Assembly (NCBI RefSeq): GCF_018977255.1 | Contig: NW_024704742.1 | Span: 44,270,001 to 44,334,000 of the forward strand | Direction: 5' to 3' | DNA length: 64,000 nt | From: Callorhinchus milii | Taxonomy: Eukaryota | Shown here: positions 4,967 through 41,546 of the stretch, piece by piece | Numbering within the stretch: position 1 is the stretch's first letter | Layout: the number at the start of each line of letters is the position of its first letter | Program-made: the position numbers and the translations under genes | Notes under the pieces: generated by a model | What the model was told of the DNA's origin: nothing | Seen by the model: the letters and a program-made list of their open reading frames with translations, nothing else | Databases searched by the model: none

Positions 4967-5081
4967 TTTATTAAAGAAGATATGAAATACAAAGATCCCA
5001 CCAGCAAAGGCAACACTTTCCATAAAGAAGACAAGCACATTACAGTAAAAGATCTGTGGATCCTCTGGAAAAGCTCGGAAG
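4967..5081 (+). CDS. STIM2: STIM coding exon (hidden EF-hand): [38 protein letters not shown]
   Basis: ttttgcag acceptor, G|gtaggg donor, 115 nt; resembles STIM1/2 exon 3 translation. Confidence 0.95.
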
Positions 5082-7599
5082 GTAGGGACTTGGCAAAGTA
5101 AACGGGAACAATCTTCAAAGATACAGTGTGTCACGTCAACACAAAGTGGGTATGATAAGCACAAAGAGCTCTGATTACTGGGTTTGGCTTATATCGAGCA
5201 CCTGTGTTAATTGATTTATAGACATTTACAGGATTATGGTGTTAACAGAGGCAGCAAGAGTGGATTTAAGTGGTATGTTATTGTGTGTTGTTAACTGGAT
5301 CTCATGCCTGATGTTTCCTTGGATCAGTTTGAGATCTGAAACATTTACTGCTTGGTACAGTGTTACAATTCTCGTACGGTTCTCATCACTATTACACAGT
5401 TGCAGTGACTGGAAGCATAGTTCTTGGGTGAGTATGATTTTATTCATCCTGTAAAAGAGCTCCTGGTCCTGCTAAGAGTCAGGGGAAGACTATTCTCTAA
5501 TGACTCTGAGAATGCCAGATTTTACTGCCACTTTCCAGAGGAAATTGGAGAGTTATTTAGTGATTGACACTTATTTTTGGCACATAAGCAATTTACTTAG
5601 GAACTGCCCAGATGGATCTTAATGGTCTATTCTCGGGCTCTACATTTGTGTGTCACAACCATTATCCCTGCTGAATAAACTGGAAATCCTCAGGTTCAGC
5701 ACAGTAAATAACAATAGAATATTTTTTTGATCAGCGTCATGAATCAATTATGAATCACAATGGGATTAAAAAAACTCTAAATTTTTAGTTGGCCACAGAT
5801 TTCACTTTTGTTTAAAAAAAATTGTCAATGTTCACAAGGATAGGTGGAAGAAAATGCCTGTAAAAAGTAACTATAGGTTATGAAATAATCCTGCATAATT
5901 TCTGACTTTTCAACCTATTAATGGCCGTTATTCAATATGGTGATACACTTTAGTTTCCATGTCTCTTGAGTGGCGCTGGACAGAATTACCTCTTTCAGAG
6001 AGGTTGGTATCTTACTCTGTTCACAGTTACATAGAATTAAATAGTGATACGGCATGGAAACAGGCCATTTCCCAACTGGCTCATGGCTGTGTTTACTCTA
6101 CATGAGCTCCCACCTTCTATTCCCTTCGCCTGTACCCCTCTATTCCCATCTTCCTCACATATGCATTAAATTTTCTCTTAAATGCCTTAATACTATTTGC
6201 TTCAACCACAGCTTCCGGCAGTCAGTTCCACATTCTCACCCTCCTCTTGCATGAAGAAATCCATCCTAAATTTCCTGTTAGATCTATTACTTGCTATCGC
6301 GTAGTTACACCCTCTAGGTTTGGACTCACCAAGTTGAAGTAGGCTGTCAGCTTCCGCATTATAAGAATAAATAATAGTAATCCTTGCATTTGATATAAAA
6401 TTATAAGAACCATTTCCTAGTCTTAAACAGCTATCTGTACCCTTCTTAATTGTAGATTATTAATAATAATAATAATACTAATCCTTGCAAAGTGCTTTTC
6501 ACATCAGGCAGATATCCAAAGCGCTTCACAGGATTTATGTGAAGTGGAGAGACTGTGTATTTGTGGGCAAGCAGAACAAAGATAGACCAGAGAGTTTTTT
6601 TTTAAATGGACACATCTTTGGAGACGCATATTTCAGTTTGTTTTAAAGCACTGCAGGAGGAATGTGCTAATCTCAGAAAAAATGTTGCAATAAAAATTGA
6701 AGTTTGGTTTTAAATTTGCCCCCATTTTCCAGCCCGCTTATCATATATCATTTCTCTGCTTTGTCCCAATCCCCTTCGGTGTAGTACACGTGCCCTTGTT
6801 AGACAGTGTTTTCCATCATTTTTAGAAAACAATATGAATTATATTCTGTGCCAAAACAGCCTGCAGTATTTTTGATGATTCAATGATTTTCATTTATTCT
6901 GTAAAGTTGATAGTCACAAACAAAAACAGTCCTGTGACAAAATAGAGCAACCCTCTAACACTGGGGACTTGCCAAAATCTTCATTCTAGAGTGTGCACAA
7001 TGAAACACAAAATGTAATTTTGTACAATTCAGTGATGCTGAGTATTAACTGCATTAGAAATGAAGGGAAAGAACATTTTGACAATACGATGTGATAACAT
7101 TCAAAATATTGAAATTGCAGAGGGTAGCAGAAGTTCAAGTTGCCCTTTTTCTGTGCCTTTGTCCTTTATGCCCCTTTCTCTGTTTATTTTAAAGAAATAA
7201 ATAAAGTAAAAGACATGACAGTGAAACAATACCATTTTTTACTTATAATAATGCTTGCATTTGGTATAGCACCCTATATCATTGAAATCCCTCAAAGTGT
7301 TTTCACAGAGTCTTTCTGTAAAGTGTATTGACTATGCATTTATACTTGAACACAGAAACCAATCTGTACACAGGAATGTTCCATAAATAGCCGTGTCCAT
7401 TTTTTAAAATCTGGCCAGGACACCGGGAGAAACTTCCTTCTGTTTTCGAACAATGCCATTAGATCTTTAATGCCCATTGAAACAGATTAACATCTGATCT
7501 GTAGGACGGCACTTCTGTGAATGCAGTGTGCCCCCTGCACTGCAGTGTTAGCCTAGATAAATGAGCTTGTAACCCACAACTTTCTGACTCAACAACTCC

Positions 7600-8130
7600 C
7601 AATAACAATTTACATTTCGTACAGTTCATATCAGTAAGGATGTCTTACCTCGTGATATGCGGGACAGTGTTTGTTGAGCAGAGTCAGTGGCCGGGATGGT
7701 AGAGTTGAGGCGGTCTCAGAGAATAAGGCAAGGGTGTGGAGAAATTTGAATGTGAGTACGGGGCTCTCGAATTTGATCCACTGGGGTGATGGGGCACCAG
7801 TGAACCCCAGTGAGGATGGGGGTGGTAGGCTTATGGAGCCTGGTGTGGAAGAGGACAAGGGCTGCAGAGTTCTGGATCCTATGCAGCTTGAGTACGGAGG
7901 AACTGGAGAGTCCAGCAAGAAAGATTATGCAATAGTTATTTGTAATGAAGGCATGAATGAGGAACTGGTAACACTGGTGCGAGACATAGTGTCAGAAGTG
8001 GGTGATATTCCTGAAGTGAGGGAAAACCAAATGAGAGCCCCAGTGTAGGGCATAAAGGACAGTTAATGATTGAATAGGACATCAAGGTTCTGGTCAGACT
8101 CTGAGGTGAGTGTGCTTTCAACTGAACCAG
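7600..8130 (-). mobile_element. old L2 fragment
   Basis: PQWIKFESPVLTFKFLH-type translation; similarity to other L2 copies. Confidence 0.7.
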
Positions 8131-39206: not shown

Positions 39207-39417
39207 CAGCAACTTATAGTAAAGCTGCTTACAGCTTAGCAAAAAGCAGCAACCAGGGGCGCCTCCGCCGACCCAACGCGATGTCTTCTGCAGTTTCACT
39301 GTCCCAAACGTCCTCGCACTCCTCCACTCCTGACATCTTTACGATGAGCAGTTCGTCAACTCTCTTTCGCACCGAGGAAGAGGAGGAGGCCATATTCTTC
39401 ACAGCTGACAAGAACTG
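39207..39417 (+). CDS. STIM2: STIM coding exon (Ser-rich): SATYSKAAYSLAKSSNQGRLRRP...LFRTEEEEEAIFFTADKNW
   Basis: Polypyrimidine tract plus cttcag (tandem CAGCAG) acceptor, TG|gtaagt donor, 211 nt; EEEEEAI-F-A-K-W resembles STIM2. Confidence 0.9.
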
Positions 39418-41056
39418 GTAAGTGGATTGCTCTGGGTTGTAACCAATTGCAGTCAAACACAGTAACCACTTTCACTCATCCAGCGACTGTCACGTTGGAT
39501 TCCATTACACTTCAAAACAAGGATGAGATTCATGTAGCAGGGAGTATAGAAAGTGGGGGTGTGAAGGTGTTGACTAAAGACAGTTGAAGAGATACTTCAA
39601 TGTACATTTTAAAAGGATTCTGAAGGCAGAGAAAGAATAGACATGGAGAAAGGATTTTCAGATTTTCAGCTACAATGGTGACAGAAGAGAAATTGTGTAG
39701 TTTATTTGCAAGACCAGATTTCTATGTCTGAGTGTCTATGAATTTTAATGGTTCATCCAATTTAAACCAAAAGTTGATTCAATAAGTGTGGACCATTTTC
39801 TCACCTTTTGTTCAGAATATAAGTTGAAAAGTTTTTTTTTCCGCCTCTGCATTTCCATAACCTTGCAATGTGTTTTGATATATGAAGAATTGCATTGCAC
39901 TTTTGAGTTGCCCTAGGAAATTATTTCATGAATTATAAATGTATCCAAGATGATTAACGAATTGCCTATAATAATTTTCTTTCATTGTTAATTACATGAA
40001 TATGGATGGTAGTAATTCCCTCTGTGTACATACTTTTACACAGAACCACAGAAGTTTACAGCAAAGACAAAAGGCTATTCTGCCCATTGAGTCTTTCCTG
40101 GCTCTTTCAAAGAGCAATCCCTTCAGCCTCTTGTACCTGCCTTTCCCCTAACTCTATAGTTTACTCATTTGATATCTGTCTAAATTGGATGAACCATTAA
40201 AATTCATTAACACTCGGACATTGAAATTTGGTCATGCAACTAAAATTAGATGGTTTATCTTTTCCTCTCCCTCCTATACCCATTGTAAACTTTGACAACT
40301 GAAAATCCCTTCTACGTGTCTCTTCTCTACCGCCTTCAAAGTTCTCTTAAAGTCTAAATTTTGCTTAGTTCCCTTTTGATAGGTAATATGGATCCTGTCT
40401 CACCCATTGCTCCCAGCAGGGCATTTCATATCCTAAACACTCTGTGAAACGAATTCTCCTAACCTCCCCATTGGATTATTCGATAACTATCTTAAATTAA
40501 TGCCCTCCAGTCAATGACTCACCACATGGTTAACCAAACTCTCACATTACACTTAACTGGTCAGTTGTACTCTTTTTTGATTAGCTGGGTGGAAAACCAT
40601 AACTATATTAAAGAGTATCCAAAACAGACAGAGTTCCACACATGTATGTGACCTACACATGGAAATTTCTGTGTGTCTGAAACGGAATTTTCAATCTGTC
40701 CCTCCAGTAAAGCACAGTGTTTGCTTAATTCCAGAGAATATTAGGTGCACATGATGAGAGCCAAGGCTTGGGGACTCCAAAGTGTGGGTTTGCATAATAC
40801 TGGAATTCAATCTAAAACCATAATCTAAAACCTCAATGCTATTGAGAGCATTGTCTGGCAACGCCACTCTATCCTTAGGTCTTTGGGTTACAGGGGTAAG
40901 GGGAGCCAAGTGGGACAAATTCCTTTTCCCAATCATCCAATTTCCATCTAACTCTGTGTGCCATGAAGTGTAGTGTTCTAACTTAGAAGCTAGAGGGTTT
41001 ACATCATTGTATTTTGTATCTTTATACTTGCTAATTGGTTGTTTTGTGTTGTCCAG

Positions 41057-41546
41057 GGAGACGCATGAGGTAGCTTCAGACTGTGATTCCTCTTTTGGAT
41101 CTCTGAGCGGCAAGAAATTGTCTCCCTTATCAAACTACGAGGCTCCCCTTGGCCCTCCAGGCAGTGCATTGAATGGTTCCGTCGATAACATATCTGTTGC
41201 TGATTCCACCGTGACCTACGAGCGGTCTACTGCAACACCTGATTCAATAGGCCCAGCAGATACCAAAAGCATGGTTGTGAGCCCCCTGTTGGCCAGCAAG
41301 CCCACCCGCAATGGCATTGAGAAATCTTACAGCATGGGACAGCTGTTGGGCACCCAGGATCGACGCATCTCAGAGAATTCCACACAGAGCGAGAATAGCA
41401 CCGTGAGAGATCAGAAAAAGAGACAAACTGTGTCCCAGGACCTGCAGTATACTACAGACAAAATTAAAAAACCCTCCAAAATAAAAACTCTCTTTAAGAA
41501 GATAGCAAAGCAGCCAAAGCCAAAGAGTGCCAATGAGGAAGCCTGA
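41057..41546 (+). CDS. STIM2: STIM last coding exon: ETHEVASDCDS...NGIEKSYSMGQL...KKPSKIKTLFKKIAKQPKPKSANEEA*
   Basis: gtccag acceptor, phase-compatible, TGA at 41544-41546; STIM2-like polybasic tail. Confidence 0.93.

Follow-up and report, generated by a model that had tools for sequence, protein, structure and literature searches.

Human STIM2 is a weak activator of Orai1 owing to the SOAR residues E470 and L485, with Leu485 conferring weak gating, according to PMC6267984. We analysed a stretch of 64,000 nucleotides from the elephant shark Callorhinchus milii (the window), in which the interval 4967-41546 comprises exons 3-12 of an orthologous STIM2 gene present in single copy, a reading to which we assign a probability of about 0.95. 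The assignment is based on exon structure, identity to a public protein, domains, tree position, neighbouring genes and a state-by-state comparison with other STIM proteins. By homology, the encoded protein would be an ER-membrane Ca2+ sensor, with a luminal EF-hand/SAM domain that senses store Ca2+, a SOAR that is predicted to be restrained by the single transmembrane helix and coiled-coil 1 and to bind and open Orai channels, and a Lys-rich tail that may bind the plasma membrane.

The gene lies on the plus strand, and its ten exons in the window, all with AG/GT borders, splice exactly to residues 87-721 of P0001, the public protein 'Stromal interaction molecule 2, Callorhinchus milii', i.e. 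to 635 residues plus the stop (Table 1). The borders were searched by a script over all AG...GT pairs in the ten intervals, and a single combination reproduces P0001 87-721. Exons 1 and 2 are located outside the window on the same contig, about 58.7 kb (C1:44211298-44211450) and 27.5 kb (C1:44242479-44242613) ahead of it. A preliminary description of the locus had placed the start and the end of the gene correctly to the nucleotide, all exons of its gene model are visible in the plus-strand stop-to-stop frames, and all 17 motifs that it listed are found in P0001. Mammalian STIM2.1 (STIM2-beta) carries a short alternative exon of 8 residues inside SOAR; the intron 31306-34025 contains 61 AG...GT segments 18-33 bases long, and at the DNA level no conserved-looking counterpart of such a mini-exon was found among them.

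Table 1. Exons of elephant-shark STIM2 in the window, with the codons at two SOAR positions.
Feature	Position in window	Strand	Remarks
STIM2 exon 3	4967..5081	+	second, non-canonical EF-hand part (...WKSSE); AG/GT borders; equals P0001 from residue 87
STIM2 exon 4	17848..17959	+	start of SAM domain (VHNWTVDE...); Pfam SAM_2 at P0001 125-191
STIM2 exon 5	19586..19701	+	end of SAM domain; Pfam SAM_2
STIM2 exon 6	22143..22320	+	transmembrane helix and start of coiled-coil 1; aligns with STIM1 CC1 chains 6YEL, 4O9B
STIM2 exon 7	22925..23102	+	coiled-coil 1; alignment to STIM1 CC1 chains
STIM2 exon 8	31138..31305	+	end of CC1, first SOAR helix; Pfam SOAR at P0001 337-437
Last codon of exon 8	31303-31305	+	Glu375, position of human STIM1 G379 / STIM2 E470 (PMC6267984)
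STIM2 exon 9	34026..34126	+	SOAR basic patch and apex
Codon in exon 9	34068-34070	+	Phe390, position of human STIM1 F394 / STIM2 L485
STIM2 exon 10	35865..36103	+	end of SOAR and STIM2-specific stretch PSLTS..YSDHSWVVMPR..PPYPIAGGVDDLDEDTPP; 100% identical to P0001
STIM2 exon 11	39207..39417	+	Ser-rich linker and acidic EEEEEAIFF motif
STIM2 exon 12	41057..41546	+	C-terminal region, Lys-rich tail KKPSKIKTLFKK; stop codon 41544-41546

Membership in the STIM family is indicated by Pfam matches of P0001 above the cut-offs (EF-hand_STIM1 109.6 bits, SAM_2 35.6 and SOAR 144.9), by PDB sequence matches to EF-SAM, CC1 and SOAR chains of STIM1 and STIM2, and by the presence of the Lys-rich C-terminus. 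For the EF-SAM region the bit score is 227.2 with human STIM2 (2L5Y) and 192.8 with human STIM1 (2K60), and the identities, counted by hand from the alignments, are about 71% and 62%, respectively. The motifs PSLTS.LYS.HSWVVMPR.S.PP.PIAGGVDDLDEDTPP, EE.AI.F and KK.SK.K..FKK are present in 14 of 14 STIM2 rows of the alignment and in 0 of 10 STIM1 rows, and the named matches among the 120 listed in a search with exon 10 are STIM2, generic or hypothetical, none of them being STIM1.

A careful maximum-likelihood tree was computed from 45 rows and 680 columns, including 17 representative rows; bony-vertebrate STIM2 is represented in it by coelacanth, gar, bowfin, sturgeon, teleosts and four representative proteins, with tetrapod STIM2 left out. 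Here the window protein forms a clade with five elasmobranch (shark and ray) STIM2 proteins (100/100), whose sister group comprises 14 bony-fish and coelacanth STIM2 rows (100/99). The window protein is thus part of a STIM2 clade of 20 rows (100/100); the STIM1 rows, 14 in number, form a clade of their own (100/100). In the AU test a tree that unites the 19 other STIM2 rows without the window row is rejected, its log-likelihood being 45.5 lower (p 0.0001). A placement outside both the STIM1 and the STIM2 crown clades was also considered and is at odds with the tree and the AU test.

To describe the STIM1-like residues of the protein we compared it at 46 diagnostic columns in which STIM2 of bony vertebrates differs from STIM1. 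The protein has the STIM2 state at 27 of these columns and the STIM1 state at 12, the other 7 being occupied by a different residue. Each of the 12 STIM1-type states recurs in elasmobranch STIM2 (in at least two of the three proteins compared), and the majority state of the outgroup rows, which were picked by tree position only, agrees with it at 7 of these 12 columns and equals the bony-STIM2 state at none. The preliminary description had called the protein a 'STIM1/STIM2 mosaic'. Its STIM1-type labels DPT..TFH, WKSSE, NWTVDE, RNTxFGTFH and KQALSEVTAALRERLHRWQ are upheld by alignments to human 2K60 and 3TEQ (STIM1) and 2L5Y (STIM2), and at the last two SOAR sites STIM2 of coelacanth, gar and teleosts reads RSSVFGTLH and KKAL.EVT.CLRERLHRWQ. 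VRMAL, listed there as STIM2-type, turned out not to be STIM2-specific, as it occurs in 104 of 120 listed STIM1-named proteins (four VRMAL variants). Some of the type labels had been taken from human sequences only. The mosaic is real at the level of residues and, as judged from the alignments, consists of ancestral states that were retained here and replaced on the bony-vertebrate STIM2 stem. Of the two readings offered earlier, the first, a STIM2 keeping ancestral residues, is the one supported, since all five elasmobranch STIM2 proteins examined have these states, which are mostly found in the outgroups as well, the protein is nested in STIM2 and its neighbours are of STIM2 type.

The second reading, given as the headline of the preliminary description, was a third vertebrate STIM ohnolog and sister of STIM2 that cartilaginous fishes retained and mammals lost; in a variant, hidden paralogy, cartilaginous and bony vertebrates would have kept different duplicates. 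We consider this very improbable. It could draw on the STIM1 states at the diagnostic columns, one of which, Phe at the F394/L485 site, has been mapped functionally, and on a plain count of loci in the assembly, which gives three. Searches of the genome with P0001, a shark STIM1 and a SOAR profile all return the same three STIM loci and no more, on contigs C1 (the window gene), C698 and C352, where the search scores the best candidates only and the assembly is incomplete (the 3' half of STIM1, for example, is absent). C698 holds the annotated partial STIM1 of Callorhinchus (P0132). The third locus, C352:17661-27963, encodes 600 residues in ten exons, of which 585 (97.5%) are identical, with 15 mismatches and no gap, to residues 25-624 of P0122, a sea-lamprey 'stromal interaction molecule 1-like' protein, and the GC3 of its coding sequence is 0.70 compared to 0.50 in the window gene. 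Of the words sampled from this 10-kb stretch, about four-fifths of which is intron, a fraction of 0.45-0.78 was found in runs under five organism labels, and the contig has a repeat in common with at least 39 further small contigs. Four of the runs that contain C352 match window positions 30001-42000 with only 10-23 pieces each, all listed pieces being 25-51 bases long, a sparse cover to which we give no weight as evidence. Most likely, the STIM locus on C352 is foreign DNA in the assembly. In the assembly as searched, two native STIM loci are found, STIM2 on C1 and STIM1 on C698; the locus count suggested in the preliminary description does yield three loci but does not yield a third native one. 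Consistent with two loci, each shark and ray among the matches listed has one STIM2-named and one STIM1-named gene only; the '1a' and '1b' labels of two skates group together in the tree.

A third ohnolog is also at odds with the full-support nesting in STIM2, with the AU test and with the neighbouring genes. Reciprocal loss of two ohnologs is beyond the power of a tree alone, and only the neighbours speak against it. The gene order at human 4p15 is RBPJ-CCKAR-TBC1D19-STIM2-PCDH7. In the elephant shark, STIM2 is flanked on the same strand by RBPJ, with exons at C1:44053766-44071391 (+) about 140 kb upstream, and by a PCDH7-like gene with a Protocadherin domain at C1:45343118-45343756 (+), about 1.03 Mb downstream. 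One RBPJ exon is identical to human RBPJ chain 3NBN_A at 57 of 59 residues, the sole other LAG1 locus (C18) scoring 68 bits, and the cadherin repeat of the protocadherin matches human protocadherin-7 chain 2YST with 206 bits, compared to 168 for protocadherin-1 and 78 for protocadherin-9. TBC-like exons lie about 45-49 kb upstream of STIM2, and one at C1:44165691-44165966 is on the same strand; a feature search points to RabGAP-TBC with scores of 0.89-0.90, which have the grade of a lead. Pfam returned no family in one of two TBC-like exons and only a sub-threshold holin match in the other, and none of the 88 matches of a genome-wide RabGAP-TBC profile scan lies between RBPJ and STIM2, so that TBC1D19 identity was not obtained. 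The N-terminal Pfam profile of CCKAR has no match in the genome, where the controls were silent as well. The upstream neighbours were read over 60 kb of the 140-kb interval, with 44.075-44.150 Mb outside. For an ordinary STIM2 the preliminary description had expected only two STIM loci, grouping inside STIM2 and flanks formed by TBC1D19 and PCDH7; two native loci, the nesting in STIM2 and a PCDH7-like flank were found, and the TBC neighbour did not resolve to TBC1D19. In substance, this outcome goes against the third paralog. In the open literature, subscription journals being outside the scope of the search, we found no paper joining STIM1, STIM2 and Callorhinchus, no publication claiming a third STIM for cartilaginous fishes and, among the papers listed, none on STIM gene history as judged by the title and the start of the abstract. 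The gene is an ordinary one, already public as STIM2, and the elephant shark has two STIM lineages as other vertebrates do. A plain tBLASTn locus count would have misled; the lamprey-like STIM contig and the small contigs sharing its repeat indicate that paralog counts and claims of 'ancient ohnologs' from unplaced contigs of this assembly need a contamination screen.

The interleaving of STIM1-type and STIM2-type states along the protein could also suggest that STIM1 and STIM2 of the chimaera lineage underwent gene conversion or exchanged exons, which we likewise consider very improbable. In the protein, the STIM1-type states form no tracts but occur singly between STIM2-type residues, and their presence in elasmobranch STIM2 would make any such event older than the chimaera-elasmobranch split. 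Moreover, several of these stretches read differently in Callorhinchus STIM1 itself (e.g. QDAAAKHSTFHAGDK versus a 15-residue counterpart in the window protein), and the states carried by the outgroups are explained by plain retention.

In all cartilaginous-fish STIM2 proteins compared (4 of 4 and 6 of 6 in two alignments) the position of human Leu485 is Phe, as in STIM1. These proteins have Glu at the G379/E470 position, Asn at N388/S479 and a STIM1-like D-V-D in the EF-hand loop. Having Leu at the L485 position characterises STIM2 of bony vertebrates and is no condition of orthology. Cartilaginous-fish STIM2 may tentatively be regarded as a natural intermediate between STIM1 and bony STIM2 at the residues to which experiments on the human proteins attribute the weak coupling of STIM2. 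If the human mutagenesis carries over, the weak-agonist character would have been built in two steps, with Leu acquired on the bony-vertebrate stem only, and stronger gating of Orai would be expected from STIM2 of sharks and chimaeras than from that of humans. The residue states themselves are observed in the alignments, and the functional consequence is drawn from PMC6267984 and PMC7795233. Cartilaginous-fish STIM2 proteins provide natural variants at Orai-coupling sites (Glu 470 and Phe 485 in human STIM2 numbering), with which the sequence of steps that made STIM2 a weak agonist is open to direct test.

Among known STIM proteins, those closest to the window protein are shark and ray STIM2 (Heptranchias perlo P0010, Mustelus asterias P0002 and Mobula birostris P0011), with 75-80% identity over the whole protein, 82% for Heptranchias over the kept tree columns, the same domain order and STIM2-specific C-terminal motifs, and agreement at all 12 diagnostic columns with a STIM1-like state. 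Lineage-specific residues are few, e.g. KYKD in the elephant shark against KDKD. STIM2 of sharks and rays stops at the Lys-rich tail, past which that of the elephant shark extends for about 13-14 residues (...KQPKPKSANEEA). Human and bony-vertebrate STIM2 (2L5Y; coelacanth P0098, gar P0022) are orthologous by tree and neighbours. They share with the elephant shark Glu at the E470 position and the motifs PPYPIAGGVDDLDEDTPP, EEEE.AI.F and KK.SK.K.LFKK, with 63% identity for coelacanth and gar STIM2 and 56% for a zebrafish relative. The elephant-shark protein differs from them by Phe instead of Leu at the L485 position, Asn-Thr instead of Ser-Ser just ahead of it, KQAL..AAL instead of KKAL..ACL, VEVEK instead of VAVEK, and DGDVDVEES instead of DGGIEVEES in the EF-hand loop. 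STIM1 (2K60, 3TEQ, 6YEL; Callorhinchus P0132 on C698) has the same architecture, and the SOAR core of human STIM1 is nearly identical to that of the window protein (167.8 bits over 101 residues), but full-length identity is 50-53%, the STIM2 C-terminal motifs are missing and the G379 position is Gly. The lamprey protein P0122 has 38% identity with the window protein, and in the tree it is placed with three representative proteins (93/85) outside the two gnathostome clades.

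A series of STIM-like exons, found in stop-to-stop frames, occupies positions 4967-41546 on the plus strand of the window (C1:44270001-44334000, plus) in the Callorhinchus milii assembly G000 (991.5 Mb, 1762 contigs). When all AG...GT pairs in the ten intervals were scripted, a single combination reproduced residues 87-721 of P0001 letter for letter, P0001 being the public 721-residue protein 'Stromal interaction molecule 2, Callorhinchus milii', which is also 100% identical to query exon 10. This agreement confirms the coordinates and all the motifs of the preliminary description. 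EF-hand_STIM1, SAM_2 and SOAR domains each score above the Pfam cut-off, and the EF-SAM region resembles human STIM2 (227.2 bits) more than human STIM1 (192.8 bits). The window gene is an ordinary STIM2 ortholog that is annotated already. In the alignment, STIM2 of three sharks and rays and of coelacanth and gar ends at or just past the Lys-rich tail, whereas exon 12 of the elephant-shark gene continues for about 13-14 residues beyond it (...KQPKPKSANEEA).

Exons of STIM2 and neighbouring features on C1, the contig carrying STIM2
Feature	Position	Strand	Basis or remark
LAG1-DNAbind exons	C1:44053766-44071391	+	profile match
TBC-domain-looking frame	C1:44162365-44162718	+	within 60 kb read upstream of STIM2 exon 1
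TBC-domain-looking frame	C1:44165691-44165966	+	within 60 kb read upstream of STIM2 exon 1
STIM2 exon 1	C1:44211298-44211450		outside window, upstream
STIM2 exon 2	C1:44242479-44242613		outside window, upstream
STIM2 exon 3	window 4967-5081	+	AG...GT script vs P0001
STIM2 exon 4	window 17848-17959	+	AG...GT script vs P0001
STIM2 exon 5	window 19586-19701	+	AG...GT script vs P0001
STIM2 exon 6	window 22143-22320	+	AG...GT script vs P0001
STIM2 exon 7	window 22925-23102	+	AG...GT script vs P0001
STIM2 exon 8	window 31138-31305	+	AG...GT script vs P0001
STIM2 exon 9	window 34026-34126	+	AG...GT script vs P0001
STIM2 exon 10	window 35865-36103	+	AG...GT script vs P0001
STIM2 exon 11	window 39207-39417	+	AG...GT script vs P0001
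STIM2 exon 12	window 41057-41546	+	AG...GT script vs P0001
Protocadherin-domain gene	C1:45343118-45343756	+	one of four such in the genome

The mixture of STIM1- and STIM2-type segments had been read as either a slowly evolving STIM2 with ancestral residues or a candidate third vertebrate STIM paralog, a STIM2-sister ohnolog. Phylogenetic analysis does not support the latter. The careful tree (IQ-TREE, LG+C20+F+G4 PMSF, 45 rows x 680 columns, tetrapod STIM2 not among the rows) comprised 16 rows from 120 listed STIM2-named proteins, 11 from 120 listed STIM1-named proteins, the sea-lamprey STIM1-like protein P0122 and 17 representatives of a profile-free search (150 listed) picked via a first FastTree of 110 rows. 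The window protein groups with five shark and ray STIM2 (support 100/100); the sister of this group (100/99) comprises 14 STIM2 from coelacanth and ray-finned fishes. The whole STIM2 clade (20 rows) and the STIM1 clade (14 rows) each obtain 100/100, their union 82/74, and the lamprey protein with three other rows lies outside (93/85). Constraining the 19 other STIM2 rows together to the exclusion of the window row is 45.5 log-likelihood units worse (AU test, p 0.0001).

The neighbouring genes argue against hidden paralogy. One LAG1-DNAbind exon on C1 is identical to human RBPJ (3NBN_A) at 57 of 59 positions (112 bits); the sole other LAG1-DNAbind locus, on contig C18, scores 68 bits. Pfam did not confirm a TBC domain in either upstream frame, and an atlas feature search pointed to RabGAP-TBC clusters (0.89-0.90), which serves only as a lead to TBC1D19 or another family member. 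A cadherin repeat of the protocadherin gene scores 206 bits with human protocadherin-7 (2YST), 168 with protocadherin-1 and 78 with protocadherin-9. The resulting order RBPJ - TBC-like - STIM2 - PCDH7-like, on a single strand throughout, agrees with the gene order at human 4p15.2-p15.1, and hidden paralogy is therefore disfavoured.

Several repeats accompany the gene. At least 1.3 kb upstream of exon 1, GC-rich simple repeats extend over about 9 kb (C1:44200400-44210000), with long open frames of Pro/Gly/Thr-His type on both strands. Three tRNA-like matches exceed the Rfam cut-off: window 16754-16825 (minus) and 38657-38728 (plus), both inside STIM2 introns, and 43619-43690 (minus), downstream of STIM2. 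Since the elements that contain them are repetitive, with translations found again elsewhere in the window and in the upstream region, they are probably the heads of tRNA-derived SINEs. About 850 bases past the stop codon, window 42395-42596 contains 5.8 tandem copies (89-94% matches) of a 35-base unit, with a higher-order unit of 70 bases. Broken frames at 60249-61932 (minus) resemble a decayed LINE-type reverse-transcriptase fragment and coincide with the last 4 kb of the window, where both GC and GC skew go up.

Genome searches with the SOAR profile, P0001 and whale-shark STIM1 returned the same three STIM loci and no others. Besides STIM2 there is a locus at C698:30876-44559 that is 73-95% identical per exon to shark STIM1. 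This contig (44,561 bases) carries P0132, 'stromal interaction molecule 1, partial [Callorhinchus milii]', and its end truncates the gene within SOAR (final match 44476-44559); the same searches detected STIM1 3' exons nowhere in the assembly. P0132 has a complete SOAR and the next exon, yet the searches did not find the corresponding exons. Minus-strand mirror copies of exon 2 (11263-11400 vs 30876-31013) and exon 3 (7337-7453 vs 34824-34940) on C698 look like a fold-back assembly artefact.

The third locus is a complete, compact and GC-rich ten-exon gene (C352:17661-27963) on an unplaced contig of 75,850 bases, with 36-60% identity per exon to P0001 and a coding GC3 of 0.70 (window gene, 0.50). 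An exon query matched two proteins only, each 94% identical and named 'stromal interaction molecule 1-like [Petromyzon marinus]'. Its AG/GT model of 600 residues aligns with P0122 25-624 with 15 mismatches and no gap (585/600, 97.5%), the match extending through a low-complexity stretch, and this identity speaks against the locus being the third paralog that it at first seems to be. P0122 has the longest end branch in the tree (1.49 changes per column); descent cannot explain such likeness to a chimaera gene. A 10-kb segment of C352, roughly four-fifths intron, was sampled as 31-letter words; in 20 runs, from eight studies and under five organism labels, the share of these words present is 0.45-0.78, and no run reaches 0.9. 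C352 is most likely lamprey-type DNA within the elephant-shark assembly; the genome as assembled, with C352 taken as foreign, therefore has two native STIM genes.

An inverted copy at C352:7912-8493 (minus) is 90% identical to C352:20191-20777 and includes part of STIM exon 4. At least 39 other small contigs, from C125 to C1668 (e.g. C379:14066-14306, C543:14772-15023), carry a sequence 81-91% identical to a roughly 240-base repeat of this contig (C352:20534-20771); below C125 no contig appears among the 92 matches listed, a weak observation (best 40 of 4178 candidates scored). These contigs, too, may be foreign in origin, and a by-product of the analysis is caution over lamprey-like contigs in this assembly.

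The mosaic itself is real. Two alignments were used, one in blocks covering 14 STIM2 and 10 STIM1 together with the lamprey protein, the other of 23 proteins including outgroups. They show every STIM1-type stretch of the window protein, KQALSEVT.AL included, to be common to shark and ray STIM2; STIM2 of coelacanth, gar, bowfin, sturgeon and teleosts has the alternative state. Diagnostic columns were those with one residue common to three bony-vertebrate STIM2 and a different one common to five STIM1. Of the 46 such columns, 27 show the STIM2 state in the window protein, 12 the STIM1 state and 7 another residue. Some segment labels of the preliminary description were drawn from human sequences alone (VRMAL is also usual in non-mammalian STIM1). 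Each of the 12 STIM1 states recurs in two or more of the three elasmobranch STIM2 compared, and the outgroup majority matches the STIM1 state at 7 of these columns and the bony-STIM2 state at none; the mosaic thus represents old states retained across cartilaginous fishes. The replacements fell on the bony-vertebrate STIM2 stem (branch length 0.24).

Retention extends to residues tied to Orai1 coupling. Two papers (PMC6267984, PMC7795233) attribute the weak Orai1 binding and gating of human STIM2 to E470 (STIM1 G379) and L485 (STIM1 F394), and the CC1-SOAR clamp to STIM1 K371/G379/N388/L390 vs STIM2 M462/E470/S479/V481. At the K371, G379, N388, L390 and F394 sites, counted along the 3TEQ alignment and the 23-protein alignment, the window protein has Leu, Glu, Asn, Ile and Phe. 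Glu at G379/E470 is present in every gnathostome STIM2 examined. At F394/L485, all cartilaginous-fish STIM2 carry Phe, as do all STIM1, the lamprey-side rows and four of five outgroup rows; in the 23-protein alignment Leu is confined to STIM2 of coelacanth, gar and a zebrafish relative. The Glu step thus preceded the divergence of cartilaginous from bony vertebrates, and the Leu step came after it, an order of SOAR substitutions that, as a further by-product, is open to experimental test. This may make shark and chimaera STIM2 stronger Orai activators.
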